The notes under the pieces: generated by a model | Databases searched by the model: none | The model's input: only the letters and a program-made list of their open reading frames with translations | What the model was told of the DNA's origin: nothing | Assembly (NCBI GenBank): GCA_965637545.1 | Contig: OZ281501.1 | Coordinates: 4,526,001-4,590,000 of the forward strand | DNA length: 64,000 nt | DNA from: Phallusia mammillata | Taxonomy: Eukaryota | Direction: 5' to 3' | Part shown: positions 10,544 through 64,000 of the stretch, piece after piece | Position numbering within the stretch: the first letter of the stretch is position 1 | Layout of the letters: each line of letters begins with the position of its first letter | Made by a program: the position numbers and the translations under genes

Positions 10544-11062
10544 GTATAGTATTGACGAAAAATGAAATGGTGGACAGGTTTCTACTGGTTTAGGGTTTTC
10601 ATTAGTTCAAGGTTGAGTTTAGGATTTACTATGACAACAATATGATGCTATAGTTATGATAGCGAATTCCAGCATATGACTAGCCTACATAAGATACCTA
10701 TGGTATGAGATTTGCTTGCTTTGGCGTCGTATTGAACGTTTTGTCTGGTGTGACATTCGTATGAATAAACGGCTGACAAACTAGGCCTAACTTGAGGCTT
10801 AGTTTCAGTTCAAATGGTTGTCTTTGTGTTACAGTATGGCAGAAATTGAGATTATTGGGATGTATTGAACTGTTAATACTTGGAGAACATAGAAAAGTAT
10901 TTAAAAGTTTACCAGCACTTTAAGCGGACTTGTCTGCCTCGAGTAAACAGCATCTATTTTGCCGGCTACTGAAAGCCTTTGTCCAGTCACTTTACTCTGA
11001 ATGTTGTTGTTTTGCGTTCGTCACAGAGGTTATTGTTGCGCAATTATTGCTGCTAACAAAAG

Positions 11063-11867
11063 ATGTTCGCACACGGTGAATGCCACCAAGACTTGAATTA
11101 TCTGGTTCGCAGTGGCAACGGCCAAAACGGAAACTCTCAGGTTTGCCTGGACAAAGTTACTGGACGTTTTTTGTGCACTGAACTTATACACCAAAACGGC
11201 CTGCAGAGGGAATCAAAGGCAAGACTGACCAATGCAGCAGTTCATCGGACTAATAGTGATGGAATTTTGCAGTTAAATTGTTCTTCAAAGCGTCAAAAAT
11301 CCCGTGGATTGCAGGGTTTCTGTAGAAAGAAAATCCCGTTGGATACGTCGCTTAGTACAGGTGCTGTTCCAAGTAGCCCGGGCTTACAAATCCCTTCCAA
11401 TAACCGGAGTTATCGCCAATGTAAGGGAACTGGGTCAACTCACAAAACACAGACTTTTGACTGGAGGCGATTTCTAAGAAAGTCACGGGCACCGAACGAG
11501 GAATCAAACCGAGGACAACCTTTGGTTAGCGATTCGCTAAAAGACCGAAACCAGAATTCGACTTGGAGTCCAGACAGCCTGCCCGCTATCAAGCATTCAA
11601 GCAATTGCGTCAGGAGACCATCGCCTTCTGTCAAAAGTATCGCCCACACGATTATGAGCGAAGAGGCCACCAGTGCCAGCGATAAGAAATATCAGCTCTC
11701 CCAGGACGCTAGAACTATTAATCAAACGCAGAACGCTAGGACAACACTTACTCCCCTTGCTGCTGTCAGCTGTAAAGAAACGACTTCAAAGATTGACAGC
11801 ATTCCCCTGACGAAAAAGGTATCAAGGGTTATTCAGGTGGACGGTGTTAGCTACAAAGTAACAATGG
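11063..11867 (+). CDS. PDE1: Large alternative first coding exon of PDE1 (268 codons, basic/Ser-rich, low complexity)
   Basis: Longest non-transposon ORF. ATG 11063 has an in-frame stop just upstream. It ends at ATGG|GTAAG (phase 1), in frame with exon 27503. The C-terminal KKVSRVIQVDGVSYKVTM resembles the KKCRSATFSIDGYSFTIV N-terminus of the long vertebrate PDE1C isoform (recalled, not searched). Confidence 0.75.
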
Positions 11868-14800
11868 GTAAGTAGATTTACTAATAATTTATGGCGGTGG
11901 CGCATCATTTTTGACGTGATAATAGGCATTGTTTCAGTTCAATCTTCATGGAAGCAATGTCGTTAGATTGTTTCTAAGACTTTCAGTTTTTACCTAAAAG
12001 TCTCATAGCCTACTTGTTTCCTTAATTTGCTCTGAGAGGAGTGCAGAAACAAAATGATAAGTTGTTTGGGTTGTGAGTTTTTTTGAAAAATAACCTTACC
12101 AAAATTTAAACACCTTAAACTAAGGACTATGGAAAAACTAGCCGTAAACCACGTGTCAGTAACAAATTCTATGTATAGTTAGTATACTACAATGTTATGA
12201 TGCGTTGACAAAAGTCAATCGGGTAAAAAACGATTAAGGGCAATAATAAACGTCATTTATTGTTTTATTGTTTCACCAAATGATGCAAACAGGCACTTTC
12301 AACTGTCAAAAAGGTTCATTAAGTTGATACAGGTGCATTATGATAAGAGTTAGCTATGAAATGATTATGAAAGCAATAGAATCAGTGTAGTGTTGCATTT
12401 CTTTTGGTTAGTTAGGTATCCGATTTAAAACCAATTATTTTAACAAAATGCCATAAGGTTGTGCATGTATCGCTAGATTTTTACTTTGCATGACAGAACA
12501 ACATAACGCTGAATCGTAAAGACGTAAATTTTGTTATAAAGCAGAGTATTGTATAAAGGTAATATACGTTCTCAAAGGCTATTATGGATTTGTGCACGTT
12601 GTCTTAAATGAAATGTGAGAATTAATTTTGGCAAACCTAAATACGAAATTGCAACCGGGCATGCAGTATCAGAGTATGACTTTGTCAGTTAAATTCGATT
12701 GAGATACTGCGGTTCGTTTTACCTCAGGTTTTTTACATTTAAAAAAATTAGGCTTTGTGTTTAGTTTAGGCTTTAGTCCAGAAAGTTTCAATGAAAGTTT
12801 GCTGTAATGGGCCAAAAGGTGTTCAAATATTATAAGGTTACGCTCATTACATGAAATCACTGATTTTGTCAAATTGCCAGTCTGTTGTTTTGCTAACAAC
12901 ATTGTGCGCATTTAATTTAAGTAGACCTATATTTCTGTATTTAAACTAATCGTTGAAGGTTCGCTTTCTGGTCGTAACCGCATGTTCAACTGAATGGAAT
13001 CTACCCGTAAAAAACGGTCTAAATATTATTTTAAATGCATCGTATCTTAATAATGCAAGCAAACTTGTTGACACATTATTACATCTCTTTATAACCTGCA
13101 GAAAAAACCTACACAAAAACAGGATAGTTTACATGCATCGTAGCTTTTGTTTTGTATAGGGACGGTTGGATAATTTATCACATTTTGATTGGTCAGTTGT
13201 CTATTACGAATTTGCATCATACAAGAAATTGGGCCAGTGTTATTTAACCGTTGACTACAGTCGTGGCACAGTTTGCACCGTAATTTGTTATTTATAAAAC
13301 TGACCAGATAATGTTACGTAACGGTTATAAATTTCCGAGGACTGACCAACCAATGTTTTTACAGCCCAAATGTACACGATTCTGGGCTAAATCTTAGTGT
13401 TTCCAGCACATATATAAATCAACTTTCGGCCCTGTTTTGGTCTGAAAGTTCTTTATTTAACCAACTCATCGTGTTAAGAGAAGTACGAAATAAACTACTA
13501 CATGTTCCGGTCAGTTTCTATGCAGTTCAATTGGCTAAATCTATAGCATGTGATCATACGCCGTGTCATAAGCTGGATTAGTTGATCCTAACTTAAGATC
13601 ATATGGGCATGAATCAACATGCGACGTGTACGTTAACAATCCGGTGGTGATTTGGCGACAGATAGTGGACGAATGTTGTTGTTCCTTTTGTTACCGGGCG
13701 CCACTAGTAAAGATAATGAGTATTTCACTACTGGGTCAGTAAGCTGTCTTAAGCCTCGCGGATTGTGATGTCACAAGGCTTGATGTGGTTAACATACGTC
13801 ACTAGATAAACAGTAGGCAAGTTCCGGGCCAGGTTCGAGTTTTGCTGTGAAAACAGTATTGTATTGGTTGGCTCGTGGGAAGGATAGCCGCTTTCTATAT
13901 TGTGACAACGCTTTAACGTTGCGAATATTTATTTTTTCACGGTCGGTCCAAGTTTACCACTATTTCTCAATGATGGAAAGCTTTTTTAAGAAATCGCTGG
14001 ATAAGAAATGGGCACGAGATTCGCAAATTCGAAATTCTTTTAAACTTTCCACAATGGTTATTGATATCTTAACTAAATACCTTTCTAAATTATTCTTGTT
14101 GTTTTCGGGTCAACGGAATATTGTTAACCAAAAAATTCAGGTCTATTACTCAAACACGTATAAATGTTAAATGCTGCCTTGTGACGTGGTTGCGTTTAAT
14201 TCTTTTTTCCTTTGTTTATCGTGCACTGCACTACGTGCATTACCCTGATGAAGGCGACCTGTATAGGACGTCGAAACGTTGGTATAAAAAATACAATCGC
14301 CAGAAGAGCTCTATAAATTTGATTTTATGCCTGGCAGCAACAGCTTATATGTACGTAGAAATGTTATCCATTTTTTATTTATACCCTAATTTGCTTTGTA
14401 TCGGATTTGCTTGCGTTGCAAAACAAACAAACCCTGCCGAACAAAACCATAACCTTTTCAATTGTTCAAATTTACACCACGTCGACGTTTTGCCTTATTT
14501 CGTATTCTAACGTCCAATCTGAGAGATGCCAGGGTTATCACGTAGCGAGGGGACTTCCCCTACGGATTGTACGTCATATTCCGTGATTCAGAGCTACTTC
14601 TATTGTACAATCGATTTGTCTTCGACGCCCCATAGGTTTTCATATACACAACACTATAGAACCGTATTCAACCGTGACGCATTCGTCTTAACAGTACGTT
14701 TTTTACACGTCACTGGTCAAATCGTTTCTAAGCGTTTAGCCACTATTAAATTTCGGCATTTCGTAATTTACGAAAATGGTTGCCTTATTTGCAGTGAGTG

Positions 14801-17800: not shown

Positions 17801-20800
17801 ACATTTAGGCATGTGTATTCAAACTGTATTCTCATAATTTCTACCGTCAAATCACTTGGAATTGATTGATGGCCCAGCTTTCAAATTTTGTAATGGATCC
17901 ATAATTTTAATTGCTTAGTCTGGTGCAGTGTCGTTTTCTTGGCAGGAACAATGCCTTTTGCACTTTGCGCAATTGTTTCCTGTTAGAACTGCATCTTTTC
18001 ATTTTGTTTCAGTAACAGATGTATGGAATTTTTTACCAGTTTAGAGCTGTGTTTAAACCTAAAAGCGATGACCACAGGTACTGAAAGGTTATTGTTTTAG
18101 TTGTTAGAGACCTAATACATTCTATTGTTTATTATAATCTAAATGATACAAAAGACGAAGCACATTTAACGTATGTGGCTCTATTGTAAAGTGCGGTCAA
18201 GGCATATAGTGTCCAATGTCATTCTGTTGTCTATGTGATTTCAATTTCACGATTGATCCATTAGTTCGATTGCAACGCATAAAATGGAATTGCTTGATTG
18301 ATCTATGGTTGTCCTGACTGATTTTGCAAGCCCGTTCAATTTAACTAAAAGACATTAAGACACCCTATTTGTATGGGTTTGAATGAGAAAAAGAGTATAA
18401 ATATGCTGAACTAATTCAATTTTAACTTGAAAATCAGACAACCAAGATCGCATTTTTTTCCTATTTTAGGAGTAATTAAGAGTAACATAAGATATATACC
18501 TGCTCTATATTGTGAAAAATATCCCGAGTAGTGTTTGGCGATACAACAAAAAGCATTGTGTCAATCCCAAGCTATCATACGAGCGGCAGGTTGCAGTAGG
18601 TCTATAAGCAATTATCTTGAGAGACACGTCCCTTTCAGTCAATCACTGCACATTGAGGCAGCAATCAATGCAGTAAGAGCTTAGATGCGAGTGTAATGCT
18701 TGCAATCTGAAAGCCTGAGGCTAGAGCAAGCTATTAATAGGCCAGCCGCAACCATAACATGAGGTAACGCATTTCCACACGAAGCTTGTCCTAATCTTAC
18801 GGCCCCTATATAGGTCGGAAGTTATAAACCGGGTTTGATTGACTCGATTGGTAGATTGTGCACAACCGATTTGTTTAAGGTGATTCAATATCTAGGTTTT
18901 GCATTGAAAATGGTTAGGTTCCACATATTAGCTGTATTTGCCGCTGAGCACAAGTGCAGTATGTCAGATTAAGACGATTTGACCAAGTTTTTTGTTTAGG
19001 TCGTGCAGATTTGTACGTCAGATTTTTAGTGATTAAAAGTTAACGATACCAGTTTGCAAATAGAGCTTGTATCTTATACAAAAAATGCATACGTGTAAAC
19101 AATGCTATTGCCATCATCGGTAGCAAAGTTCGTAGACTTCATATATAGCCGATGAACTTTTATGTGAACTTTATAAAGGCGATTAAGCCATGCTAGAGCG
19201 CATGTTAAACTTTCGTACTCTATTTTTAAACGTATACAATCTGTTGAACGTTATTTTAGCCGAATATTTTTGTGATGTATGTTGCTTTTTTTGGAAAAGG
19301 TGATTTTATTAAGGCCTGTAGCAAATAGATTCTGCATTTCGCTGGTTTGTTTAAGTAAAGTATACACGTGAAGCAGCAATTACCTGTCACTGCTATAGTT
19401 GAGCGGGTTTGTAGAATTCAATTATTCACCGCTTCCTCTCTGCAAGCACCGACCATAAAAGCATGCACATAACATCCTCTAGATTTCTAGTTACCGTGCA
19501 GTTTGTGTATGTTCAGCTAGTGGCGGGGCGTAATGGCTATTGGCCCAACCTGCCAAATAGGGATTGTATGAAAAGTTAGTCATCAGGTAGTAAGGCGTAC
19601 TTGCTGAGATAAGCGTTACAGTTACTATTTCTTTAGATATCACCGTAGCGTAATTTTAAATGAAATTCGAACCTGTAATCGGCCGTCGCGTGAATGGGTC
19701 TTTGTTCATGTAGAATGTTAGACAACTATGTTTTTTTAAAAAAAGTATAGAGCTCTTCTGGCATTTGTATTTTTATATCGACGTTTCGACGTCCTATACC
19801 GGTCGCCTTCATCAGGGTAAATAACACTGAATGTGCGTAGTACAGTGCATGATAGAGAAAAGTACAACGCAACGAAAACATTGTGCGAATGATAAGGCCT
19901 CTAATCTTTGAGCAGGTGCCTGCAGAACGCTGAAAGCATCATCTCTGTTTTGATGCTATTTTTCGGCAGGATTAAATGTGGCAGGTCTTTCATTGTCGCT
20001 GTATCGTCATAATATATGTCTGGCATTTTTGACGAATTGTAGGTGCTGCTAAATATATCCGTATACCTTAATTTTTTGCGTGTGTCAATGATAAGCTTAA
20101 AAGCAAAAACAAGGGAGGTAATATGTTTCAGCATCTGTAACGTACCAAACATGTACATTTGAACACTAAACACGTCCTACCATTGTTAAGAAGTGGCCAA
20201 ACCTTAAACAAAGGTTTGCCTGAGTTTGTTTTTGTTCGTCCCATTTTCGGTGTAACCATTCGGTGTAAACTCTTGGGAACACATGTGCTATTGGTTGCTT
20301 TAATCAATGTCACCGTATCATGGGCAAAATCGAAAGATCGACGTTCCATAGATCTGTAACAAATTTTCGGACTGTGGTTGCCCAAGTGAGAACAACATAG
20401 GAACTACAGTCCATTTACGGCCTTGCTGCGTGATTTTTCAACAGCGATTAGCATGAGAGGTTTAGCTTTCATTTGGTGCCAAATTTTACTGATTTCGTGC
20501 GCTAGTCTTTTCCATCACATGTTTGGAAATGTTTATTTCCAGGTGAAAATCAGTTGACAGTGTTACAAAGAACAAAAATCTCGCTAAAAGGCATCTTCAG
20601 TGTCTTATTTCAAACAGAATCTTTTTAACACTGTCGACTGATTTTAACCTGGAAATAAACATTTCCCAACTTGTGATACACATATCCTGAAACGTGGTAA
20701 TCGTTGCAACAATGGCAACAGGGTATGATTCCCAGAATCAATTTACCAGGATTAATAACTAATCTTTTTTATTTAAGATTTTGGCTGAAAATACTGTTAG

Positions 20801-23800
20801 CAAACGCGCTAGGGCAGGAAGCCTTGCAATTGAAAGTTTAACTTTCCTTACTGCGATACTTTGAAACTGTAGCAGAGAAACCCTTAAAATTAAAAGCTTT
20901 TCGTTGAATTTGACTCCCTATCCGCTTTTGATGGTACTTTTTTACGTCTGCACATGCGTGACGTTGATCTTGACCCCGTTCAAGGTTCATTTAAGTCGAC
21001 AACTTTGCGTAGGTGGGATCGGGTGAAAGTTTTGTGTGGGTTTTGCCTACGATAAACAGTGTCGGTTTAGTCACGCTCAAAGAAGCAGAAATTGTAGATA
21101 TTTCACTAAGTTTGCTGTTATATAAGAGACATAAACTGTAAAAGGTAGATAAGCTGTTGATTATAGGTTCGTTCTGGTGGGCGAAACGTCAGCAAAAATA
21201 CAATGTCTTGAAAAAACAACTAGTATTCTGTTTAGCATTACACCAGTTGAATGACAATTTTTTAAAATAAGATGCTGCTGCCAGGCATGATATATAAACG
21301 AGTAATGCTCTTCCAGCAGTTTTATGATAAACAACCGACGTTTCGACGTCCCATACGAGACGCCTTCATCAGGATAATGGCATATTTTAAAACACAAAGT
21401 TCTTATAAAGCGACAAAGGCATTTGCAAAAAAACACAAAAATAGCAGAATAATTGAAAACGTGTCAATTTTGTCACTTATAACAAAGGCGATTGTTAAAA
21501 CGTCTGCAACAAAGTGTATTGATTATAATTATATACAAGCTCTTTAAAATTTAGGTTTTTTTCTAAGATTTTTAGAGTTTGACAGAAGATGTATACATTT
21601 TAAAAATATAGCATTTGGCAGCCTACCAATAACTTTTTGTTACAAATTAACGTTTACATTTTACCGTTTTTACTATTTATGTCGTAAGACTTATAATAAG
21701 CGTCCTAAACACAGAGCAATGCATTTTTCATTAGTGTTCGATTAATTGCATTATCAAACGCTTTACTTAATTGCAAATCAAAAGAATCGTTTACAAAAGT
21801 GGCTGCAAAACGTTAATTAGCACTTGTCTAATTGCCTTTTCGGTTTTTGGTTTGTTGCAGTGCGCAATTAATCACATCAGAGCCTGCTTCGGGCTAAGGT
21901 TGCTAAATGGTTTTTGAATTAAATTCGATATTTGGGTGATGATTCACTTTTTTCGCACAAACGTATACATGTGGTGTATATGAAGTCGTAGCACACAGTC
22001 TAACTTTTTCGTTTCTGTTACCCCTTGAACGCTTTCGAAGATACGTCGTAATATAGGAAACCATGATAGTATATGTCACGAAATTATCATGTTATGAGAA
22101 CTAATTTTGCCAGGGTGGCGCTTTTTTTTGCTCAAATGGGCTCCTTTTTAACATCGAGTCGCGGGTTGCGTTTTTTAGGCGGGTTGAATAAAGTGAAAAA
22201 CCATGACGTAAAAACTCAATGATGCTTTTCTGGCAAATATTTTCTTTGTATGGGCGTTATAGTGTCCTATTTAGTTTTCAACGTCCTATCTTATACCTTT
22301 GTATCGAAAACAGTTTATATTGAAAAACTACATTTAAGTTGCGTCTTTTGGGCCAGTTTTAACGAGCAGATTTGCGCGTTTTGAGAATTTGACCTGCCAT
22401 CTACATGTGTTGTAGCACCTAACGTGTATGTAGGTTTGCAAATTCAACGGTATATATCTCTTCTTACACCAGTGTTTAGGTTAGGGGTGGAGTTTCGTTT
22501 TAACACGAACTTTTGCCTTAGTCATTAAGCCCAACTTCGTGGTGTAACGGCACGAACTTCGTTTCATGAATGACAGCCATCATAAACAATGTGTGACTAT
22601 GGTTCTGTTTAAATAGGCTTCCGTTTTTCAAACTTTTCAATTTGTCAGTCTGTTTTAAGGGGGTAATGAATGTCAGTTTTCGTTGTTTTCCAGCAGTATA
22701 GCATCGTTTAGTCTTGTTTATGTGTAAAGAAGAAAATATATAGTATCCAAGGATACTTATTTCAGAGCCTAGCAACGGTAATTATAGTCTAATTATATCT
22801 TGACAAACTTTGTGCTTTTTCACTGTATTGGTATGTATGGGCCTGAAAATGTATGTAGTATATATTTATCAAATTGGACTCCTAAATGGTCGTTTTTGTC
22901 CGAAAAACAGCCTTTAGTTATACAGTTGGACTTTACCTTTTATCGTTTGGACTTGTGCAAAACGTTTTTTCATTGATTCAGATTTTTGTTAGTGTGCTGA
23001 CCTACAGGCGTAAGAGTCAGTTTTCTGTGTATTTTACCGATAAATTGACATGATTTTGCTGCCGACCTTATATTCGTAATATGCCGAAACAGAGGCAAGT
23101 TGTCCGTCGTAAAAGATCTAAATCAAGCCGTGGACCAGAAAACGGTAAGTTTATCATTATACTGTATAATGTTTTTGTTCAAAAAGCCGCCTATTGTCTG
23201 TGATGTCACAATACAATGCAAACAGTATTGAGTGCTCAGAACATGTTTTGGTGTTTTTAGGCGTTTTTGTTGGTTTCTGACAATGTGTTGCAAACCATTG
23301 TTGCATTTTTGAGAGACATAATGCATTGTTTTCAAAGGGTTGGTACGCCACATTTGCTGCAAATGAACTGGATTTCCTATTGGTGTCTTGCTTTGGTTTA
23401 CACTGTATGCCTTTACGATGGAATCAAGTCTTTCTGGGTGTCTGTTATTTACTTGCCACTAAAAACATGATAAAATTCTGATCTAAAAACTCTAACCATC
23501 AATTGTATTTCGCAAAAACTACGACCGTGTCTTTTTCCATTTCGTCTATCGATTGCCTGATCTGTCAAAAGTGCATCAACATTATTGGTCATGACACTTT
23601 GTGGCTTAATGCAACCGTCCGGCTTATTGGTAGGCAATCAACTCGCTTATGACATTCCTAACGTCAACGTCAATCAATCACAAATGTCGTAAAGGTAGCA
23701 AACTGCGTTTACCAGCATCTATTTCAGAGAGAGAGGCGATTTTTGGCTCTTACTGTACACGCTTTTTGCGCCCTAAACTGAATAGAATTTCAATACAACT

Positions 23801-26800
23801 GGTAATGTTAAAACACTAAAGACATTAGGTGGTTAGGAGATTGCTTTTGATAGTTTTTTAGCGTAAAAATTGTGTAATGTGTAGATGATTTATACAGCAA
23901 GTATTGAAAGAAGCACTGCGTATGTTTGTTATGCCCGCCATGTCATTTCAATGTTCCGTCCCAGCGGACTTGACAGGATATTTAGTTGAATTGTTGACAG
24001 ATGACTGTGAACTTTTAGTCACCGGTCTAAGTTGGCTGAATGTCGGTTGTATATATAAGTTGTTGCTAGCTATACTGTTACCGAACAACAGCTTTGCATG
24101 AGCATTTTGTAGCGGTTGTTTTTTAACGAGTCTAGAGGGGTCGTATTCAGTGGAAAGTGTTTTGGAACTTGTAAGTAATGTTTGGTGTAAAAAGTCGCGT
24201 ACAGATAACTAACTATTCAAGCCTATGTCATTGCGAATATCGTTCGTTTTAGACAAGTGTGTAAAATATAAAAAGTTTGTTTTCACTCGTTTTACGTTGA
24301 ACATGTGGTTTTGTGGATCTTAATTTGTCACTGGAAACATTTGCTTTTGTATGGTTTGGCTCTGATCTTATATATACGTTGATGCCAAATGCACAAAACA
24401 ACGCTAAACCTGTTTTAAACGTATTCTTTACAAAACAGCCGAGAGTTGCAAGCGGGCCGGAAATCTGAGCCCGAAACCGAAAGTGTAAGCCCGAAGCCTG
24501 GCCCGAACCCGAAACGTTTTTGATAAGCCCTTTTAGGCCCGAAATTTTGATTGACAGGCTATCCACGAAAGCCTTGCAAGTTGCAACAAAGGGTGAGAAA
24601 GAAAAAAGAGAAAGACAACAAACACAATGAACAACGGTAGACAATGGGGTAAACAATACGTTTTATAGTAGGGTGGGCATACGTTCAAAGCCACAGATTT
24701 GTTACTAAGCTGAGTGATTTTATTTGAAAAAAATGACTGACACGGAACGTAAAGTCAGGCCCGTTTCAAACCCGTTTTCTCACAAATACCTGAACCCGGC
24801 CCGACTTTTAACTTTTTTTGTATGTTTTGGCCTTTAAGTGTGCCGTGATGAAATGTGTCTTTTTAATGTTTCGGAAACGTTAAGCTTTAGAACTATTTCC
24901 TTAAACAGGGGCTAATTGAAATTTGTGTCAAATAAAAAAACTAGTTGTTTTCATGTTCGAATTGCCTACTTTGTCAAAACCCGTACATAATGCACTTAAA
25001 ATCTGTTTCCAATTAAAACAAACCTACGTTTTTTAAAATGAAATTGCGTTCAAGTAGCATATTTTACATCATGGTACTTTTCCATTTAAAATCTTTTTTA
25101 CACGAGTATAAATGTTAATGCAAGAAACTTCCATGCAAAAATATCTTGCAATGGCGCTGTTACGCTTTTATATCTCGTTGCCAATCTGCCCTTTAGGGAT
25201 CTCGAAACCACGAGTGCACCGCAGTTTTCATTCATAAATTATTATCCACGCCGGGCGAAACCATTGCCCCCAGCGCCTTGTTAAATGCGAAACAGATTAG
25301 TTTTGAGCCTCTAATTTTTAAACTTGACGTTGGTCCGCCTTCGCTAAAAGCCTGACTTAAATAATTGATAGCCTGTTGGCTTGATATGTCTTGATCCTAC
25401 AAGGTCCGTACAACAAGCTAATTGTGTCAGCTGTCATTTCGAAATGCGTGAACTTTTATGTTTTTGTTCTTGACAACTATGTTGAGTAAAAACCGCCGAT
25501 CGTTTGAATTTTGATAAATGCAGATGGGAAAAAGGCCCGCTGTCTGGGACGTCCATTACACAAGGTAATTCAATTGCGTGTCACAGACGTTTACTGGTCG
25601 TCACTCAAATGCAGAAAAGTTTACGCGCAGTTCAAGCAGTGGCAGTCTTGAGGTTTTTGACATAAAATTTCAAATGTGCAATACTAAGTGTAGACTTAAC
25701 CCATTGTTAGATAGTAGTGAAGTCAGTTTTTGATAAGCTAAGCTAGGTTTTTGTGCAACCGGAAAGCACTAATCAGATATATTTTTGCTTTTTAATCGTT
25801 TTTTATGCTTTATGCTTTTATTTTGGCAAAGATTAATATTTTATTGAGGTCAATTTTTAACGACATTGAGTTGAAGTAAATCTCTAAATTAATTTCATGA
25901 AAAGAAAAGTATGTTAAACCATACATTGCTGCTATGATATAAGTAGGGTAGAAATGCCAAATTTAACATGAAAGTTGTCTAAACTTACCCTTATCGGCCA
26001 GTTTTGCCTCTTATCGCCGATTCTACAAAACCGCGCGTTATCAGTATTGCAAGCAACCGCACACCCTCGGAACAAAACTGTCTAAAAATGCTACAATTGA
26101 AGGCAATGCAAGTGGTGCAAATTTAATATTTTATCCAAAAGAAATCGTAAAAAAGCATCAACCCAATAAATGATAAGCTGCAGACAGTGCACACTGTTTC
26201 GACCTATAAGATCTCATCAGTACATCTAGTGACAAGACATACACTGTATTGGCTAGTGTAGCCATTCAACGGCACTTCAGTTTGTTGGGAGTAACAGGCT
26301 AAAACGCTATGCCTCACCTATTCTGTTCGGTGCCACAGCAGGGCATAAACTAGCCAATACGGCCTATCTCTTGTCACCAGCTGCATTGATGAGTCCTTAC
26401 AGCAGGTCGAAACAATGTGCCCTGTCTGCAGCTTATCAAAGAACATCGTCTTTAAAAACAGTTTTTGGGTAAAAAGTATGTATCGCCAGTTTTCCTTTAA
26501 GAGTGCATTTCAGTGCAGTCCGCAATCTGGTAACATTTGAGATGTAGGAGTGTCAGGGCTATAGCAAACAGACATTGTGTACACAGGATACTTGCATCTG
26601 TTTTTCCCTACTATCCGCGTAAACTATGTCCGTGTGTTTTAATGTGCCGAAATTTGTTTTCACAAGCTGCCTCCCGCCACGACAGACGTTTGAAGGTAAA
26701 AGCAATAAACACTTGTTGGAATTTTGCTGGGTTCGCAGCTGCAATTGCAAACACTCTGATCGTGCTACTCGAAAACTGTTTTAGGCTGTGTTGTGTAGTT

Positions 26801-29800
26801 TATGAGCACTCTAGTATGTTTTTTTATACTGTAAAGTGTGAGTTACGTACAGTGCGCATAGGTCCTGTATCCTTGATATGATGGTCAAGTGTTCTATATG
26901 TGGGCGACGATTTTAGATGTTTTATACGTCACAGATAACTGCAAAATGCAATTCAAATTTACAGTTTTAACTTTTTGCGTTTTTTGTTCGTTCAATGAGA
27001 TTTTTAATGCACGCTCAGTTTTGATGCGTAACACTTCTTTTGATGGACGGCATTATGACAGCAGGATAGCATGCCAGCAGGACGTATTTGAATGAATTTG
27101 ATATGCCAAACTCGTTCGTCGTACTACTCCACACACTTTTGCTTTTTACTTTACCTTAATAGAATGTTTTTGCCCACAAATGAAAGTGCGTACCACCGAA
27201 TTTAAAGTTGTAAGGCGGACCGGGCGTTTTAGGTCGGTTTCGGCCTTGATAACAATTATAACTGGTTTAATTCGGCCCTGAATTTACACTTGGCCTCATT
27301 TGTGTCACAATTTTACCAACTTTGGGGCATTATTTAAAAAGAAAGAATTAGTTTGGGATTCAATTTTTGGCCCGTTTATAACTCACGTAACTTAACGAAA
27401 ACGCTCGGAGCAGGGCGCAACTACCTAGATTAAAAAGCCTTGTGCTAATCTAAATCTGTTGTTGCGCCTACACATATTATAACGAAAACGTATTTTTCGC
27501 AGAACCACCTGCGCGAACATCGAAAAGACAATCCCCTGTTATCAAGAAAATCAACCTCAACGGCACCGGGCCCTTGGAAAACGGAACCCTGGGGGGGTCA
27601 ACCTGTTCCAGGTCCGCCAGTGGCCAGGTGGACCGTCTGAGCAATTTATCCGTGTCTGTAGGAAATACTCCGTCACTACGAGGCGACCCCACGGCATGGG
27701 ATAACGAGCGAAATGAAAAGTCGACCTCGATTGACCTCTGCGCTAATGACGTCGTTGACCCAAAACTGGATGATGCTCTTGACCACGCTGCCTTAAGGTA
27801 TATCTTCTTCAAGATTTGATTTGGAAGTACTTAAGTTAGTAAGGCATTGTTGATCACGTGACCTGCCCGTAGCAGTGATTCAAAATCGTTTTTTATCGTG
27901 AGAACAATAAGAAGAATTTTATTTGCTCTGTTTCAAAAAAATGCCGAATGAACTAAAATTGATACCACACCCAAAAAAACAATAAATTACCTTTTTCGGG
28001 CAATTATCCACAGGTTACTAAAACACGTTTGGAAACAATAAAATATGTCGGTACATAGTATATTGGTTACTGTTCTTTTCTAAAATAAAAACAATGACAA
28101 CTAAGTGAAGGTTATGCAATCCATGAATTTTGTTGTACAGTTGTAAGCGTATAGTTTAGACGTGTTTGCAATTGTAACTCTGGCACACGTTTAAAACTAA
28201 AACGTCGAACATGAGTTATAACAGAGTATTTCCTCTATTTCAGGTTGCGTGGTTTGATTGGTCAGTTGGACAGCGATCAAGCGTGTCCAGCTGATGTGTT
28301 ACGTCACAATTTAGAGTACGCTATTTCCGTGTTGGAATCTAGGCACATAAAAGATGTCAGGTAACTAATGTAATTCACTGTATTACTGAATCCTTTTTGT
28401 CACAATAAGCCCCGAAGCCACATTTTGTGTTAACAAACCAGTCAAAGATGCAACTTTTTAAATGCAGATTTACTACAGGGCAGTATGTTAGTGAGAAAGA
28501 TTACATTTTGTGTGTTGCAAATTGTTTGTCTTACTTGGCTGATTGGGTCAAAGTTTTATGTTGGGTCGGGCTTTTTCGGGTTTAGTCACACGGTTTAATA
28601 ATACGGGTCTACTTCGGGTCTGTCTTTTAATTTTTGGCAGCATTTGCTATTTCACCAACTTTTGGGCCTAAATGGAGCCTTATTAATTAAACAATCTGGC
28701 TTGTACTTTCGGGTTCTGGTCCGCTTACAGCTGGCCTTAGTGTCATCAGTAGTATTTTATTCAAATATGACATTAAAAAATACTTACTTTTTGGCATCTT
28801 TACACATAGTATGATCACCTACCAAGTATATGCAAAAATGATGTGTCAGATTTTTTTTTATAAAGTATGTCAAAGTATACAAAACAATGACTGTTTTAAA
28901 CAAGTAGTACGATATGCAAGGCGGAAATTTGTCATGTGTGTCTCTTCAAATGATTCATTGTTAAAATGTTTCATATCGAATATTTGTCATTTTATACAAA
29001 ACAAACAGTTGATCAAATATTTGTAATCACCAAAAGATTCCGTTTCCGATGCAGTTTTTCTGCCGTCGCCACCAAGTCTATGTAGCTCAGTTGGTAGAGT
29101 GCTTTGGGTTCAAATCCCACCACCGGCTAGATTTATTAAATGCAAATCACGGGACTGTATTGAATGCCTTTGACATACAACAGTAGAATGTCCCCATGAC
29201 TGCCACGTATTGTAATATGGTTAAATTTTGTGTCAATTCCATTTATTTTTGCTTGTGGTGTGCATACCATGGCTTTTAACACATTTTTTGTCGTTTAAAA
29301 TATTGTTGTGGTGTTTTAGTATCAAACTAAAAGTTGCTCATTTCTTTTAATGTAATTGTTTTCACCTTTGCGTGTATTGACGTTTATTTATTAACATTTA
29401 CAATAGATTTGAAATGGGGGTTTAGATGTTTATTACTGTCATATACTTTATAGGACAAGAGCCGTAAAGTCACTTGGTTTTTCTTGAACTTTATAGTTAA
29501 TACGTAGAGAAATACAACATTAGTATGCCATAATTTTATTCCTGTTCATATCAAACTATACCTATATCACAAATACTACTTTGGCAGTTTCACTTTGTCA
29601 ATTGTAAACATATTTTATGAGCTAGTGCAAATACTATTGCCAGCTCCAATGCTATACACTGCTTTTTGCAACAGTCTTTGTATTAAGTATATACACTGCG
29701 TTTCGTAACATTACCTTTCTCTCATCCAGCAGGGCGGAGACCAACAGTTTTGAGGATGAGATGTCGACCCACCTTAACGGGGAAACCCCTGTCCCACCCG

Positions 29801-32800
29801 AAATTAAACGTTGGCTGCTTCAGACGTTCAGCAATTCCAAAGCGGGTGAGACAAAAATCATTTATGATTCTTTGATGTTTAAACTAGGGACCAGTTGCGG
29901 TTAAGCTCGCATTTGATCCTCAATTGAAATTGATTTATTGGGATGTTGTCGTTTTTAAGTGAAGCATAATGTTCAAGTCTAGTCCAAGGTAGCAAACCCG
30001 TTGAGACAAGACACCTTTGTTTAATGCAGGGGTTCATAAACTTTTTTGGTCTGTGGCCCAAATGTCTATTTAATAGCGATTCATGGCCCACCACGTGCTG
30101 TAAATTTGGGCACAAACAAAAAAAATAACTCAAAAACAGGCGAAATGGTTTCTAACAATTTATTTTTACTGAGATGCATGCTCCTGAAATGTGGCGACAA
30201 GATTCGGAATTCTTTGCAAAAATTACGTTTTTCAAAACAAAGCGCATAATATCTGCAGTATAACAAAACAGTAGAATTTGTTCAAATGGCTCTGTGGCCC
30301 ATTGAAAATGTCTTGATGGCCTGGGCCATGGCATGGTTTAATGCATTCAAAATTGTCAGAACCGAGTCTTATAACTTTCTGGTACCTTACGTATAATTTA
30401 TTTGGCACAACTTGGTGCATTAAAAAACGGCCAATAATGAAAAGCGAGTCCAAGCCGCCAAGAGGGTGAAATGGTTGGTGCAACCGTCTTGTGTTCGCAA
30501 GGTTTTAATTCTAATCCTGTCTCAACCGCTTATGTTTCTCTGGTATTGTTCCAACCCAGTGGTTCCCGACGGGTTGAACTTAATTGAAGTCACCGACTTC
30601 CCAAGACGAAGCCGGGAACGGTGCTTGTGATTCAACCTTTGACGGGGTTCACTGCTGAACCTGCGAAGCTCGGTTGATAGAAAGCGAGTCCCGGGTTCGA
30701 ATCCACCGCAGGCTAGATTTTTCTAACCTACGCCTTGCCATATGGGATTGCTCAGTGACCGGCTGATTCAGTACAACGTCTTCAATAGAACTGTAATTCC
30801 CAAGGCGAAATGTCAAATAAAAATTTAACGGACTTAAAAAAACAACAGGCGGCTAAATCATTGCGAACATCAGGCTTTACTGCGTTGCCTACCCACTAAT
30901 GATAAAAACAACGAACAAACAGACCCCTTATTCTTGCCGTGGTCCCATTGAAACATTATTACAAAATATTTCTTTATGCAGACGTGCGGAGCAAGCGGGA
31001 TACGGAAAAGCGATCATTGCGAAGTGTGGTGCACGCCGTACAAGCAGGAATGTTTGTCGAGAGAATTTTCCGCAAAAACGTTGAAAGCACTAACAACCTG
31101 CCGCCCGTGGTGATCGAAAAACTCAAGGTTGCTACTTCTTAATTGGTTGTCCCGTTGTGAAAGACCCATCGATTGCTATTCAGTTATTTCTGTCAATTAT
31201 ATTCAAAGCCCTAGGAGGCATTTTAATTGTTACCTGTCAAAGAGAAGCATTCAGTTTTGAATATGCTGTTTTTCTGTTTAAAAATGCGGTTCGTTTTAGT
31301 GAACAAACAATCTGTCATATTTATTTTCATATTTCATGAAGCAGTTGTTATGGAATGAAAATTGTTTACTCCATTATTAGCTGTCCCACCAGACTCGAAA
31401 TCTTAGATTTTAAAATCCGTTATGATTTTGAAAATATGTTTCTTATTTTTTTTATTGCAGGTATAGACATTGTTAACATTTTGGTTGTGTTAGGGTGGAT
31501 TGACAACTTGTCAAAATTGCTGAATCATATTACCAGTGTTGATTGTTCAGCCTTAAAAATGACGATAAAATATATCGACGTACAAGGTCACTATAGTAGC
31601 TACGCTAGCTCACATGGTCAATGTCTTGCTACTATTTTTACTGATCAGACCTTATTGATCCGAACAGTCGTATTTATGTTTTTGTGAAAATCGATTTTCA
31701 ATCTCACAGACTATTGAAAATTGTCTGTTTGTTCAAATTATTTGAAGACAAGTCTTAACGTAGATAAAATACTTTATCGATTTTTTTCTTTTTACCGTGT
31801 GTGTTATAGTCTTTTAAACGGTTACGTATTTGTTGTTAAGTTGGGCGATGAATGGACGTTCGATGTTTTCGATCTCGAGGAAGTAAGCGACGGAAACTCA
31901 CTTAAATATGTTTATTTCCATCTCCTCAGCAAATACGATCTCATCCGAAAGTTTAAGGTGAGAGTTTATACATTTCTAAATCTTCTGCTAAAATGGTTTT
32001 ATCAAACGACCAGTGGCCAAAGTAGGGTATATTTTCTGATCAGAACGTTTCGTTGATAGGTTAAAATCGTCCCCAAAACAAATTGATTCAAATTTATTAA
32101 AACATCAATTCATTGGTCTCTATGAATTCGCGATGAATATATTTTGCCTATGCGGCATCATTGGTATCTTATTCAAATAATATCTTAACATTCTATACAT
32201 CTTGAATTCATAAGGATGAATAACTTGAGGTTTTAATACAATCTGAATCAATAAGCATAACGTTCATTGTGGTCTTCATCCACCAAGCAACGAGTTAGTA
32301 GATTCTAGTTTAAAGCATACTGTAACTCAAGTAAAACAAAATAAATCCACCATAAAAATAACAACTACAACTGCAACGAAGTAAATCAACCATCGACATA
32401 AGAAAAACAACTGAAGGCAGCGCGACAAAAAAACATTGCACTCGATATATAAGCACTATAGTCTACAGCCACGTCCCAGTGTTGCATGAGCTAAAGTAAA
32501 AACAACAACAACAAATTGTCCCAATTGACGTATGGTTAACTCAAAGGCCCCCAAAACGTTTCTCCAGCGGTTTCCCAAAATTTGCCAGTAGCCTAATAAA
32601 TAATTCGTTTAAGCAAATATGGCTATTTTTTGGTATTTAAATGAAACACTTGCGGTCTCTTAAAACTACTTAGCGGTCACCCAAACCAAACCTTAAAAAA
32701 AACCTGGCTACACTAGCTTAAACGGTCAATATCTTGTTACCAGCAGCTGGACAAAACTCTAGATCAGTGGTTCTTAACCTTTTTGGTGTGGTTTCCCACT

Positions 32801-35800
32801 AAAGTCAACCACCAACTTCAAATTTCCCACTCTGTTATTTTTATAATGATGTTTTGTGCCCTAAGTTCACAAAAAAAATTCTTTAAATGAAATAATTTTG
32901 TGAAGCGATTTGGTCTGGAACCCCAAAGGTATACTGCAATCTTATTTAGTTTAAATAGTGCTTTGTGAGAGATTAAAGTTTTTGAAATATTGAAGAGTCT
33001 CCTCTGCTTGCAATAGTCATTTATTGCATCACAATCAACAAAGGAAAGGCTTTTATTCACGCACAATAGCAAAGTCATTGATACTTTTTAGTCTTGTCTG
33101 TGATTTGTATGTGTCTTGTAATCCTTACTGAAATTAATCTTACATATTGTTGCGGAAAAATGTTAGGAAAGTTACTTTCAACCATTATTTTATAGCTGGG
33201 TTCGACCCTCGGCCCGAGTTTGGTTACATGATTACATAATTTCCCTCTGAAAACCATTAAATTTCCCACCGGTTAAGAACCACTGCTCTAGATCGAAGCA
33301 ATGTGCACTGTATGTATAATACATGTTGTTACAGATCCCTCAGAAGTCCCTATGGTCATATTGTCACAAGCTACAACAAGGCTACAGACGTCACAACAAT
33401 CGATATCATAATCCCATTCACGCCGCTGACGTAGCACAAACTCTTAACTGTATGCTCATCCAGTCAGGATTCGTGGTAAGTGGATGCGAGCTAGGCGAAG
33501 CAAATAAAGCAAATGTTCTTATGAACACGTATAATATGTTTTTTTTGTTATTATTTTAGTTGACCTATAGATAAGAAGTGGTATTTTTGAGAAGTTTACG
33601 CCATTGACGTTCTATTCTAAAAGCAATGACCGTATATGCTAAAATATTTTGTAAAAAAGGCGTAAACTGCTAACTGAAGCCGAAAATTATTGAAACCAAA
33701 TCGGTGTAAATGCAATTTGGTTCATTTTCTTTGTGCAGCATTTTAACTCAGTAAAATGCTTTTCGTCATTGACCTAAAAACAAAGAAAAAAAACTTTCCT
33801 AAAAAGCGTTTCATGCCCTAATTGTGGCGGCTTGATTAGACTATTAGCAAAATTGAACGCCGAAAATTGTTTTATTTACCGGCATCGAACGCTATGTGGC
33901 AGAATTCAGTGATTTCAAGTCTTCGATTTTTATTTAACCGCGGCTTTCTACCAATTACCCTTAAATTACGCCACAAGGCACATTTGCATTCGCATGCGTT
34001 GGCGTGACTACAAAACACTTAACTACGTCACGACTGACCTTGCGGGGTCACAGAGGTCAAATTACAACGGTCAGCGTAACACAAGGCCACTGAAGTGAGC
34101 CTCAGGGCTTGAAGAGTTTGTTATGACACAACTAAAACAATATTTTTGCTTCCTTTTCAAGCACGTTTCGCGCCCCTGACGCCGAGTTCGCGATTGTAGC
34201 AAAATAATTGCCATTGTGATGTCACAGTGCTTGTATTTATAGCCGAGTGGGTGCTAGCGACAAAACCGCCTGTCCTGAATTACAATGGCCGGTAATTGTT
34301 ATGGACCCTTGCTTAGCACGTCATGCTGTATCTTTGATTGACAACTAAATGGGAATGCCTATACTTGTGACGTCATAAAGCGTCTGTCTCGCGCCGCGTG
34401 CGGTTTGGCACGTGTCAAATTAATTGGATTAAAATCAGCTCCATAGAAAACAAAATTGTTGAATACTATAAAAAGTAAAACCAATGGACTATAAAATCCT
34501 TGGTGAAACAGAATCAGTCGGTTTAAATAAAGGAATATATATTTCGCCTATGTGCCTAATACGGAACTGATGATGCCACATAGGCGAAATATATATTCCT
34601 TGCTTATATGAACCGACTGATTCTGTTTTACCAAGGATTGGGTTTTATCGTCCATTGATTTCACTGTATTATAGTTAAAAAGGCAAACAGTGATCGTCAG
34701 TTTAAGCCATGCTGTTGATGGTTTTTATTTATTAGTAAAGTTGTAATTTTGTTGAATACTATTTTCGAATTAAAATATTTCGTAAAAACGCATTAAATTC
34801 GAAAAAACAATTTTTTCATCATTTTTTTGTAATCTACTATTTCACTTTTAGATGTGATTTAACTATTTACCATCGGCTGGTGTCAAAATGTCACAGACCT
34901 CAACATAAAATCATTATTTGTCTTTACGGTGATTAATTATTCGACGTTGTGGGGTTTGGGGGTGCAGGGTGTGGGCCAATTTATTGATCCTCCTGTCAAG
35001 TTGATTCGAAACACCGAAAATGTCGCTTTGTTGATATCACAATGCCAGCGTTGTACGTGACAAACATGTCTATTTCACGTCATGTATTTTTACACAGATT
35101 TTTTGGGGGTTGTTTTTCAAACAAGCGTTTCTTAGTCGACTTAAAAAAGTAATTCGATTTTCTTTGTCTTCAAATGAAAGTTCTTAAACAGCGTTGCACT
35201 TAAATTCAAGCTGTTTTGTTTTTTAATCAAATTTGCTTAGCTACCTTGAAAAAGCAAATATTTTTCAAAGAAAAACACTTTTGCATCTTAATCAAAGGTT
35301 ATTTCTAACGATTTTTTTTACGTTTTTTACTTTCTGACGAGCCCACTACACGCTTAAAAAAACATACAGGCCAAACTGTATTCTAAAAACTGGTTAAGTT
35401 TCCTGCTTCAAGCACAACTCAGTGTCTACTATATCACAAAAAAGGATTTAAAAAACTGCTGCACTGAGCTTTTTTTCGATTTTAATCTGGGTCGGGTCAA
35501 AAGTGGTTTCGGTGAATTATGAATATTTTTTACCAGTTCACATACCTCATTTCGTATCACTTGTATTATAACCCTTTCTACAAATTTTCGAGCTTTACTC
35601 ATTTTTTAAACCAAATCTAAATCTCTCTAGTGTCCCCTAGTGGACGGTCGTGTCCCTTTCAATTTAAACCTCCTAATCTTAACTAGAGAGTTTTTTTCCG
35701 TTTTAGCACTGGCTTTCTGATCAAGAAATCTTTTCCATGATAACGGCTGCGGTTGTACATGACTTGGAACACACCGGTACCACAAACAACTTTCACACAA

Positions 35801-38800
35801 ACACAAGGTAATTTGTGGTTTAATGTACAAGTAGTGACAGTTACAAACAAAATAGAAATTGAAAATTTATTGGTGCCATCTGTGAAGACATGTATACTGT
35901 CGCCATATCTGGTTTGCACTTTTTTGTGAGCTTCTTTGGTATAGGAATTTCAATAATTGCGTGTGATTGTTATAGGTTTATTGTATCACCGGTAAGGACA
36001 TGAGTAACTGACAAGTTTGTTAATTAAACGCACGATTATGTGGGCCAGTAACATTTTTCCACGTGTATTAAAAAAACTGAGATACATTTTTTTTTCTATA
36101 CTTGTAAGTCTAAGAACATGCTGCAATGAATAAGTGGTATTAAATCGCGCCTAATCAACCATAAAATTACGCCATGCTGCTTACAAACATTGATAAAATG
36201 AAAACCATTTCGGGCTACTTTAAAAGCACGAAAAAAAAACTATAAATATTTGTCAGCTAGCGAACTTTTTTTATTGGTTTCATTGATTAAACCAGTGTTA
36301 CTCAAACTTCTTTGCTTCAGGACACACCTAAAAAATAACCGCATCCTAAAAAACAGAAATTTTGAGGTCGCGCCATTGACGGTAATATGGAAAAAAACAG
36401 TCATTGAATATGTCACATAATTTAACTTTTTCGTTATCTAAAGGCGCACCTAACCAGAGATGTAAGTCGGACACCACTGGATTAAACTATTGATTAAACA
36501 TGTTTTTGAGAAACGTCTGACCTAACACGGTATATCAGAACCATAAGGCTTATGTACAATATGGAATGTTATTGTTTTTGACAGATCAAATCTGGCGCAA
36601 CTTTATAACGACCGCTCGGTACTGGAGAATCACCACATTAGTTCAGCTTTCCGCCTCATGCAAGAAGATGACTGCAATATCATGTCGGGCATGAACACTG
36701 ACGATTACCAGTAAGCTCTCAAACCACTTTATAAGTACCAGATAAGTACTAAGATCAAAAAAACTCTGGACTGACTATCACATGTTGCCTGTTTTCAACT
36801 TTATAGCAGAATAATCTGCAGAAGAAACTGATCATGCCGGGTATGCTTTAAAAATGACTTTTAGCATAATTAAATCATTGTAATTCGACTTTCAGCGCAT
36901 TTACCACCGAGTCTGTATGGCTCGGTGGTATGAGGGCTAGAAAAGGCTTCTTCGAGGATCGAGGGTTCGAATTCCAATGGTCAAATGACATATACAAAAG
37001 CTTTCAAACGGGCCTGAAAACCGAATTTAGCAAAAATCAAAGCCTAAATAAAGCCCAAACGTTGGTGAAACTTAGGCAAAAATAGTGACTTTGTTATAAG
37101 TCCCAAATCAAGCCTTAAGCTCCTTGATAAACCGGCTTGTTTCGGCATGACCCCTTCAAAAGGCCCGACGTACTATGAAAGTCAAACTAGAGTTTAAGCT
37201 ACCGTATAGTCTTAGTTGTTGGCTGCATAAATAAATGTTTCAAAAAGTGTTTTGATTTGTTGTAAAAATATTACAACAGAATGAGAACCACGGCCTCTGC
37301 ACAACGACTGAACACATTGGGCGGGTCTTAGATTAATTTATGTTTAATTTGTTTAATGATGAATTTCAGAGAATGTCGAGCACTGATGATTGACATGGTT
37401 CTAGCCACCGACATGAGTCAGCATTTTGGCCAGATCCAAAAGATGAAGTCAGCACTTTCTCATCCCGAAACGTAAGTTTTAAAAATCCTAAAGTCAGTGG
37501 TCGGCAACCTTTTAGGCGACGGGTGCCAATTTACTTGTTATTTCCATGTGTTAATGACCTCGTGTGCCAACGTTTTTCTAAATAATTGTGGTTCGTGCCG
37601 GCTGATATCAATAATAAAGAGAAAGCAGAGTGTTTTGTACATGTAAGGATGAATTTTAAGACAATGGCATGATAAAAACTAAAAACAAGCAGTGTAACAG
37701 GTTAAATTGTGACTTCAATATAAACACGGAAATCGGTTGGCGTGCCATGAAAAAGCACTTCGCGTGCCAGGGGTTGCCGAACCCTGACCTAAACCGAAAA
37801 CGTTCTTGACCGTCCCTACAGCTGACTGCATCGTATGAAAAGGCAATCGGTTCTCGTTTGGATTCACGTGTGCTGAAGAATTAAGTTTTTTTTGCAGACT
37901 TGAAAAATCCCGCGCCATGTGTCTTATGATTCACTCAGCTGATATTAACCACCCTTCGAAACCGTGGCATCTTCATCACAAGTAAGTTATAACTTATCTT
38001 TATATCTGAAAACAATCGCACCGAGCAGTAGAATAATAAGCAGTGGTTGATCATATTGATTATACCTTCATAATATTAAAATAATTCTAAGTAAAGTGAG
38101 ATGAGAAGTCGGGGAATGGCGTGCAAACGATATCAAACATTTGGTTGTATACACAGTTGATAACAAAGCGGGAAGTCAAAATACCACATGGTTCTAAAGG
38201 GTGTTACTGGACACCGCATCATACTGCATGCGGGAGTATAAGCCCAAAACGGTATCTGAGACATTGGTATATTGTTATTGTATTACCAACATGAGGTAGC
38301 ATGTGGTACCATACGGTACCATACGGTAAGAACCGGTCCTAAACGCTCAGTCGAACAAAACAATTTTAGCCTGCAGTGGAAACAGCACTTCTTAAATCAA
38401 AAACCATCAACAGCAGCTCTTAAATTGGCGATCACTGTGTACCATTTCCACCTCTAACACCAATGAGTGTTAGAACCCTTGGTTCAAACAAAATTGATTT
38501 AACCAAAGAGATAAGCTTAGATAATTTGCCAGTCTGGCATAAGAAGTCCCCTGTTCAAATTGGATCATAAACTGTTGAATAAAGAACTGACGATGTCATT
38601 TAGGCAAAAAATATACCTGAAACTAACTGATTGTGTTTTGAGAGGTATGTGGTTGATTTTGTATTTTAAATACTATATTTATTATTTTATTTTCGCTGAA
38701 AATGCGACTTTATACTCGCTGCCGATGACCGAAATGTGTTTTTGTAATTTATAAATTAATGTTTTTGTGCAGATGGACAGAACGGTTAGTTGTTGAGTTT

Positions 38801-63100: not shown

Positions 63101-64000
63101 GATTTATTTTTTTGTTCAGTGGAATACAAAGAGCGAACTTGTTTTCGAGTTTTTAGTTGGCCCGCTCCCCCCCCCCCCCCAACAATTACCTCGACATTGC
63201 GGATATGACGTCATCACTAATGATGAATCGCACACGACAGTTTTTGGGGTTTTCAAAATATGTCTACAATGGTGTAGGTGTACTTTCACTTTAGTACCAA
63301 GTTTTAGATTTTCATACCTTTGTCTGTAAAGCATTTTAGCATTTGCAAACTAGATACCATGTTCAAACTAGAATACCGGAAGCCCTGTTTTGCTAACTAT
63401 GGGAACCAATCGGTTTAGCTGAAACATGGCAACTTTACTATTATTTTTCTGTAACTGGCATGGCATCCAAAAATCTATAGTTACACAAAAATCACTCGCC
63501 GTTCAAAGACTGACATATATTTTATTTAATGTTGCGTGTATTTTCTTATTTTTGAGAGCTGCATCGAATTATAATGATTTTTCAATGTTTATTTGTTTAA
63601 AGTTCCTTTGTTTCACTTGTATTTCAACCTATCTTCCCGGGAGCGGCGTTGCCCGGTTGTGTAATGTGTATGAGAGCCCTAATCGAACACTAGCCTGTGG
63701 TGCAGACCCCTATATTTATTTTCAACGTTGTGTAATGCACTCTTCGCCCATTTACTTCACTTGTATGTTTTTTTGTTTTTATTTTGACTTGGCGCTGAGG
63801 TGGGTAGCCTAGACTGACAAGGGCTTAAAGTTGAAGAGAAAATGTATACGTTTAGATTGCGGTTATGGTGTTTTCAATTTGTGACTGTTAAGAAAAACTC
63901 AACAACTGAAGTTGTACAAAACCCACACGAAATTTTCAATGATTTACTTATGTGATCTTTTTTGCAAGGTAATTTAGATAACCAAAAATGTAAGCTTTGT
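60113..64000 (+). repeat. Apparently identical duplicate of 38155-42042 (offset 21958), including the last four PDE1 exons
   Basis: All ORF-track entries recur with identical translation at +21958 (e.g. 38272/60230, 41468/63426). Begins immediately after the gap. Duplicated exons: 60731-60849, 61163-61370, 62063-62175, 62881-63068. Confidence 0.95.

Follow-up and report, generated by a model that had tools for sequence, protein, structure and literature searches.

We have analysed a window of 64,000 nucleotides of the Phallusia mammillata genome, which carries exons of a PDE1-type phosphodiesterase gene on the plus strand and, upstream of these, a foldback at 26171–26438. Pfam matches to PF08499 (PDEase_I_N) at 30987–31064 and PF00233 (PDEase_I) at 35704–38893 lie on the plus strand. 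The exons are GT..AG-spliced in contigs from three of the four runs, and when joined they encode a PDE1-type protein. One exon starts after the AG at 27502. A contig of 1053 nt lies at this position and extends further upstream; the foldback is therefore likely to be intronic. A sequence-only reading of the window had placed it within a PDE1 intron. The gene is borne out by these data and the intronic position is likely, although the upstream exon was not located. A 272-codon open frame at 11057–11872 (plus strand), without a Pfam match, is a candidate for it. The features of the locus are as follows.

26131–26148, unstranded: left copy of a degenerate target-site duplication (TSD), about 12–14 bp plus a few bases common with the element end, by gapped alignment to 26433–26449
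26146–26347, minus strand: long arm, a 5′-truncated retrozyme copy from about −164 to about +37 of the unit around the cleavage site, 86% to the L031 unit over 26163–26347
26176–26227, minus strand: decayed type I hammerhead with intact core, predicted cut between 26183 and 26182 (fold and alignment)
26261–26345, minus strand: middle of the rod, which has no opposite arm, being the part of the long arm from about −164 to −79, beyond the reach of the shorter arm
26346–26347, unstranded: head-to-head inversion junction, 2-nt overlap, unique in the genome
26346–26438, plus strand: short arm, a 5′-truncated retrozyme copy from −78 to about +7 of the unit (match to +12), tail absent, 88% to the L031 unit
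26379–26433, plus strand: decayed type I hammerhead, predicted cut after 26426 (fold and alignment)
26433–26449, unstranded: right copy of the degenerate TSD, by gapped alignment
27503–38893, plus strand: exons of the host PDE1-type phosphodiesterase, downstream of the insertion (Pfam, spliced contigs and translation)

The window holds other repeats. Fragments of Penelope pseudo-LTRs (pLTRs) with a minimal hammerhead, of a type that we call group B, occur at 14175–14352 (plus), 19748–19937 (minus) and 21265–21445 (minus), and a group-A fragment at 21170–21261 (plus). Within PDE1 introns there are older, weak fragments of the retrozyme family discussed below, at 31599–31668 and 32705–32747. The segment 38155–42042 is repeated at 60113–64000 as a direct duplication of 3888 bp that is 100% identical and takes in a PDE catalytic exon; it is either a recent duplication or an artefact of assembly.

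The foldback is real. In the inverted repeat the 35-nt outer arms are 94% identical and the 57-nt inner arms 79%, and the rod fold has an energy of −136.4 kcal/mol (z = −13.4), a stability that none of 200 shuffled sequences equalled. The long arm includes a decayed tail of about 30 nt, at about 26146–26175. Each strand carries the outline of a type I hammerhead with a GUC triplet at the position where it had been read. The ORFs that overlap the element (268–300 nt) reach at most 71 aa from stop to stop, and the single RT plus GIY-YIG ORF of an autonomous Penelope-like element (PLE) is absent from it. The junction between the two arms occurs once in the genome when up to three mismatches are allowed. 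The copy is not tandem and, as had been stated, cannot release a monomer by itself.

The two ribozymes had also been described as complete, with their core positions kept. This does not hold. In the plus-strand hammerhead the core reads UUGAUGA (C3U), stem II contains a U–U mismatch, loop II has a 3-nt insertion, and stem III pairs at three of its five positions. The minus-strand hammerhead retains an intact core, with an A–G mismatch and one wobble in stem I and a further wobble in stem II. The C3U change weakens hammerhead cleavage. The changes C3G and G8C abolish it (PMC11167929). A covariance-model scan, which had been proposed as a check, gave no confirmation: the minus arm alone gave a weak match to Hammerhead_3 (25 bits vs 48.5; E = 0.0057), and an Rfam search of the window at the gathering score returned zero matches. 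Matches to snoRNAs below that score were dismissed as chance.

The energy of the hammerhead fold is −17.3 kcal/mol for the family sequence vs −10.0 and −6.0 kcal/mol for the window arms. Within the rod, the two hammerhead folds can be enforced only at a penalty of 56 and 62 kcal/mol, compared with 3.3 kcal/mol in the context of the family unit. Both window ribozymes are predicted to be inactive, because they are damaged and because, whichever strand is transcribed, each would be made after its own complement and so be trapped in the rod.

Have the arms diverged under selection on folding, as had been suggested? Six changes between them fall in the hammerhead stems; four break a pair, two give a wobble and none is compensated. 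Changes affect 1 of 26 core positions vs 13 of 154 elsewhere (p = 0.70, from counts compiled by hand from the arm alignments), and the core is not significantly spared. Eight substitutions lie within the two window hammerheads, and each is found in only 0–8 of about 190 other arms, in a comparison that drew on 216 other arms and excluded the window copy from the family counts. Two changes common to both window arms, at −59 and −52, occur in 22/167 and 25/175 arms; by this comparison they mark an older subfamily. The arms differ at 14 of the 90 sites of their overlap, which lies within the range of 12–19 seen for old pairs, young pairs often being identical. Variation across the family is lower in the hammerhead (2.5% in the core vs 5.9% outside it), in a sample that was selected by its hammerhead and that includes the subfamily sites. 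Selection on folding is not borne out by stem changes that are uncompensated and by variants private to the window arms. On their sequences, the differences between the arms are the private decay of two copies of one hammerhead.

The source of these copies is an abundant repeat. The window stretch has at least 148 matches in the genome (40 of 2460 candidates scored), and a 44-nt hammerhead sequence has 268 exact matches, with none for the control. The locus had been regarded as a single copy; this is true of its junction and not of the family. Three arrays (L031–L033) consist of tandem units with a period of 282 nt, 3.0–4.3 units long and 98–99% identical, with 4.3 units at 98% in the parent array. 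The 282-nt unit matches the hammerhead core on one strand, with none on the opposite strand. The family hammerhead folds as the MFE structure, with stems of 7, 5 and 5 bp. Tandem units of 150–450 nt with a type I hammerhead, by which non-LTR retrozymes are recognised, are thus found in the family and not in the window copy, and the sequence of the parent fits a non-LTR retrozyme of single polarity. A genome-wide survey of copy number, tandem arrays and TSDs, as had been proposed, gave a high-copy family with 282-nt arrays and TSDs at most of the insertions examined.

The longest ORFs were compiled over 60 loci and 12 were scanned against Pfam, yielding five retroelement ORFs (two RT, one GIY-YIG, one integrase and one protease). 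These lie near retrozymes and outside the repeat, and the two from PLEs have their own pLTRs. As the repeat itself holds no RT or endonuclease ORF, we take the family to be non-autonomous. Assembled contigs from four runs, a type of data blind to strand, ends and circularity, cover the family unit, and those over the window foldback are indistinguishable from other copies of the family. As a test of rolling-circle copying, private variants were compared between tandem units: the units are identical within the array in L031 and L033 and differ in L032, a pattern that a homogeneous source array explains equally well. Some insertions lie inside larger, near-identical duplicated blocks (L102 and L103; L048, L049 and L050), and therefore some of the family counts include passive copies.

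Hammerheads with an identical 25-nt core plus stem II occur in four IMG/VR viral contigs of 51–87 kb (L147–L150). Their stems I and III are unrelated to those of the retrozyme, and they were rejected as relatives; the match is likely to be convergence on a favoured sequence. A search of a phage collection gave no match to the retrozyme.

We then have to ask how two copies of a single-polarity unit came to face each other. Sixty loci were examined from the sites listed; they lie on three contigs and were picked because they match the hammerhead exactly, which biases them towards young copies. The first 100 of the 268 exact sites include 27 close pairs, of which 21 are head-to-head and one is tail-to-tail. 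Spacing is variable, from 54 to 384 nt with one pair at 1563 nt, and 32 of the 85 clusters among the matches listed have the head-to-head layout. Only one close tail-to-tail site was found genome-wide (L151:1281–1675), a rare plus-minus-plus nest whose middle piece has no hammerhead core.

The truncation points vary from locus to locus. The outer ends do not; they cluster at +5 to +14 and at +35 to +39 past the cleavage site. L103, whose flanks duplicate those of L102, was omitted. Among the 26 head-to-head pairs that were kept, a short end is combined with a long one in 22, whose tail is thus on one arm, and two long ends occur together in none. The tail is about 29–30 nt long, at the lower limit of the 30–40 bp in the literature and equal to that of the group-B PLEs. 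Exact TSDs of 12–16 bp flank 21 of the 26 pairs, well beyond the 4 bp that retrozyme TSDs are expected to exceed; with mismatched flanks as controls, 12 of 650 reached 8 bp or more and none of 650 reached 12 bp. Further two-stranded loci, including multi-unit arrays, have TSDs of 10–14 bp in eight cases out of ten. At several junctions there is a gap of 10–14 nt between the matched arms. When the alleles of paired arms were compared for one vs two templates, one allele dominated (62/69). Judged by these loci, insertions of this family routinely leave a head-to-head pair of copies between TSDs, with the tail on one side.

At the window locus the exact-TSD test gave only 6 nt. A gapped duplication is present between 26131–26148 and 26433–26449, and 8 of 5000 random 24-mers scored as high. 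A degenerate TSD of this kind is what would be expected of an old copy.

These marks are those of Penelope-type insertion, of which an inverted, 5′-truncated, head-to-head copy and a tail on a single end are characteristic. PLEs carry an inverted 5′-truncated copy and a 30–40-bp tail (PMC8557442). Head-to-head pLTRs have been described in which the tail is 31 bp and the TSDs are 8–10 bp long, mobilisation in trans included (PMC3846280). A purified PLE protein cleaves the two strands of its target and extends each of them; its two start sites bound the tail, and uncleaved RNA is used (PMC11167929). We conclude that the window foldback is very probably an old, decayed insertion comprising two 5′-truncated copies of the 282-nt retrozyme, placed head-to-head between TSDs and likely to have arisen in one PLE-driven event. 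The non-autonomous Penelope-type derivative with inverted ends, which the sequence-only reading had offered as its second possibility, is essentially right.

Where the unit, the arms, the asymmetry of the tail and the TSD are observed directly, we infer the staggered cut, the dual priming and the joining of cDNAs that would have produced them. A PLE RT/GIY-YIG protein acting in trans would perform the insertion in one event. Its endonuclease would cut the two DNA strands about 12 bp apart. Each 3′ end would prime a reverse transcript, which would begin at about +7 from the ribozyme cut in one case and at about +36 in the other. The two unfinished cDNAs would then be joined in the middle, head-to-head. 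The two starting points are on the 3′ side of the cleavage site, and the copy continues across the cut; the template is therefore likely to have been a multimer left uncut, or a circle closed by ligation, rather than a linear self-cleaved monomer. The arms would probably have been identical at birth and have drifted apart later.

The same Penelope-type origin could be reached by a different route to the inversion, with a single cDNA priming itself or switching template, or with synthesis on an antisense RNA, in place of two-strand priming. Self-priming on an antisense template has been proposed for the PLEs of Adineta from palindromes at their junctions (PMC3846280), and the gaps of 10–14 nt between matched arms at several of the present junctions would be compatible with it. 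However, synthesis of each outer end begins at a fixed point of its own, beside a copy of the TSD, which fits two primed starts, as does the cutting and extension of both strands in vitro (PMC11167929). We regard the self-priming route as unlikely, though it is the most credible of the alternatives, and the choice between the two routes leaves the identity of the locus unchanged.

Alternatively, a single retrozyme might have inserted first, the inverted arm being added later by DNA foldback or a repair duplication in which the insertion enzyme would be irrelevant. The degenerate TSD of the window copy and the 2-nt overlap at its junction could be read in this way. Such a process would not be expected to stop at about +7 and +36, nor to leave a TSD around the whole in 21–22 of 26 independent loci, and both ends recur in the window copy; we consider it very improbable. 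Equally doubtful is co-option of the foldback as an intronic regulator of PDE1, acting as double-stranded RNA for editing or silencing or through residual cleavage of the pre-mRNA. Its likely position in a PDE1 intron and the stable rod expected in the pre-mRNA would suit such a role, but the divergence of the arms looks neutral, being equal to that of other old pairs, and the core of the sense-strand ribozyme is the more damaged of the two.

The headline of the sequence-only reading was that the foldback is the integrated DNA of a viroid-like circular RNA of both polarities, with its hammerheads kept by selection. In its size, its rod fold and its paired hammerheads on opposite strands the foldback does resemble such RNAs, and the minus core is intact with a weak Hammerhead_3 match; this origin is nevertheless exceedingly unlikely, since the parent 282-nt unit has a single polarity, both arms go back to one hammerhead and carry private, uncompensated changes, the window junction is unique in the genome, the tail, present on one side, is outside the rod, the footprint is also that of autonomous PLEs, and none of the 85 clusters examined, with 100 of the 268 exact sites listed, alternates complete hammerheads able to release a both-polarity monomer. 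That reading had itself allowed that the relatives of the foldback might all prove to be inverted ends of PLE type, and on the DNA side this is largely what was found. At the DNA level a viroid-like origin is thus largely refuted, and the resemblance is probably a by-product of insertion geometry.

Turning to the enzyme, we note that the genome contains many PLE ORFs, some of them open at 796–845 codons, and pLTRs with minimal hammerheads. The autonomous group-B PLEs encode an RT, with weak matches to GIY-YIG. Their head-to-head loci have TSDs of 12–16 bp and a tail on one arm in 11 of 13 cases, with ends 22–34 nt apart, the other two being ambiguous. The footprint was absent from both of the two group-A loci. 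Because the footprint is common to the retrozyme family and the group-B PLEs, an enzyme of Penelope type most likely mobilises the family; that it comes specifically from a group-B element is a narrower claim, which we favour by a small degree. A search for PLEs that carry the same arm as the foldback, suggested with the earlier reading, gave a negative result: across 40 PLE loci, sampled from clades close to the query protein, no pLTR was homologous to the retrozyme, other than retrozyme copies inserted nearby and one 21-nt match. The resemblance between the group-B tail and the retrozyme tail was exceeded by 3 of 30 shuffles, with its best position out of register. With no pLTR containing retrozyme sequence and no significant likeness of the tails, the autonomous partner is deduced from the footprint.

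Young autonomous PLEs are present at L095, L127–L132, L135, L136 and L143–L145. Several have ORFs open at 796–817 codons, and the loci include partial tandems, inverted copies, tails of about 30 nt and TSDs of 12–16 bp. They are good candidates for a PLE system in vitro.

The locus itself is of minor importance, as one decayed copy among hundreds. The family has a wider bearing. According to a review of 2020 (PMC7761336), no motif in metazoan retrozymes reveals the autonomous element that mobilises them. The retrozyme family and the PLE group that coexists with it have a measurable footprint in common, with a TSD of about 12–13 bp and a separate start site for each end, the two lying about 30 nt from one another. 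Copying of the retrozyme runs across the ribozyme cut, and the footprint makes the mobiliser directly testable in vitro. There is also a caution for searches of genomes and transcriptomes: a rod with hammerheads on opposite strands is a routine product of Penelope-type insertion and is not, taken alone, evidence of a viroid-like RNA.

A both-polarity layout is made in this genome from a one-polarity retrozyme. Viroids cleave their multimers with ribozymes of both polarities, and the escape of retrozymes has been proposed as the origin of viroids (PMC8781251). It is conceivable, at long odds, that the two-ended insertion of Penelope type, by making such rods, offers retrozymes in an animal an escape to viroid-like RNAs. 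If so, a rod lying between two ribozymes of the same sense, or duplicated in tandem, would yield an excised circle with a ribozyme in each polarity. No tandem or multimeric copy of the rod was present in the loci examined.

How does the element compare with known systems? With the both-polarity viroid-like RNAs it has in common a length of about 270 nt, the rod fold, and hammerheads on opposite strands that pair with one another. Unlike in those RNAs, the window ribozymes arose by recent duplication of a single sequence, the unit that replicates is of one polarity, multimers of the rod are missing from the loci examined, and the TSD of a retrotransposition flanks the structure.

The likeness to the non-LTR retrozymes of metazoa, which are repeats of 150–450 nt (Cervera and de la Pena 2020, PMC7229834), is closer. 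As in the accounts of these (PMC7229834; Li et al. 2026, bioRxiv 10.64898/2026.07.22.740005), a tandem unit, here of 282 nt, carries one type I hammerhead each, there is no linked coding region, TSDs exceed 4 bp, and PLEs co-occur. The family differs from those accounts in that stem III is a stable 5-bp helix and that many copies are short and head-to-head with a one-sided tail. The word 'tail' does not occur in the accessible text of the bioRxiv paper, and a literature search that covered few subscription journals and no supplements found no description of head-to-head, tailed, TSD-flanked retrozyme insertions.

With the endonuclease-positive PLEs, as described in PMC3846280, PMC8557442 and PMC11167929, the element shares the head-to-head, 5′-truncated inverted copy, the tail of about 30 nt at one end and the TSD. 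It is unlike them in having no RT/GIY-YIG ORF, a canonical rather than a minimal PLE hammerhead, and no significant homology to the pLTRs examined. The foldback is nonetheless of a known kind, the inverted-copy layout having already been published for Penelope elements.
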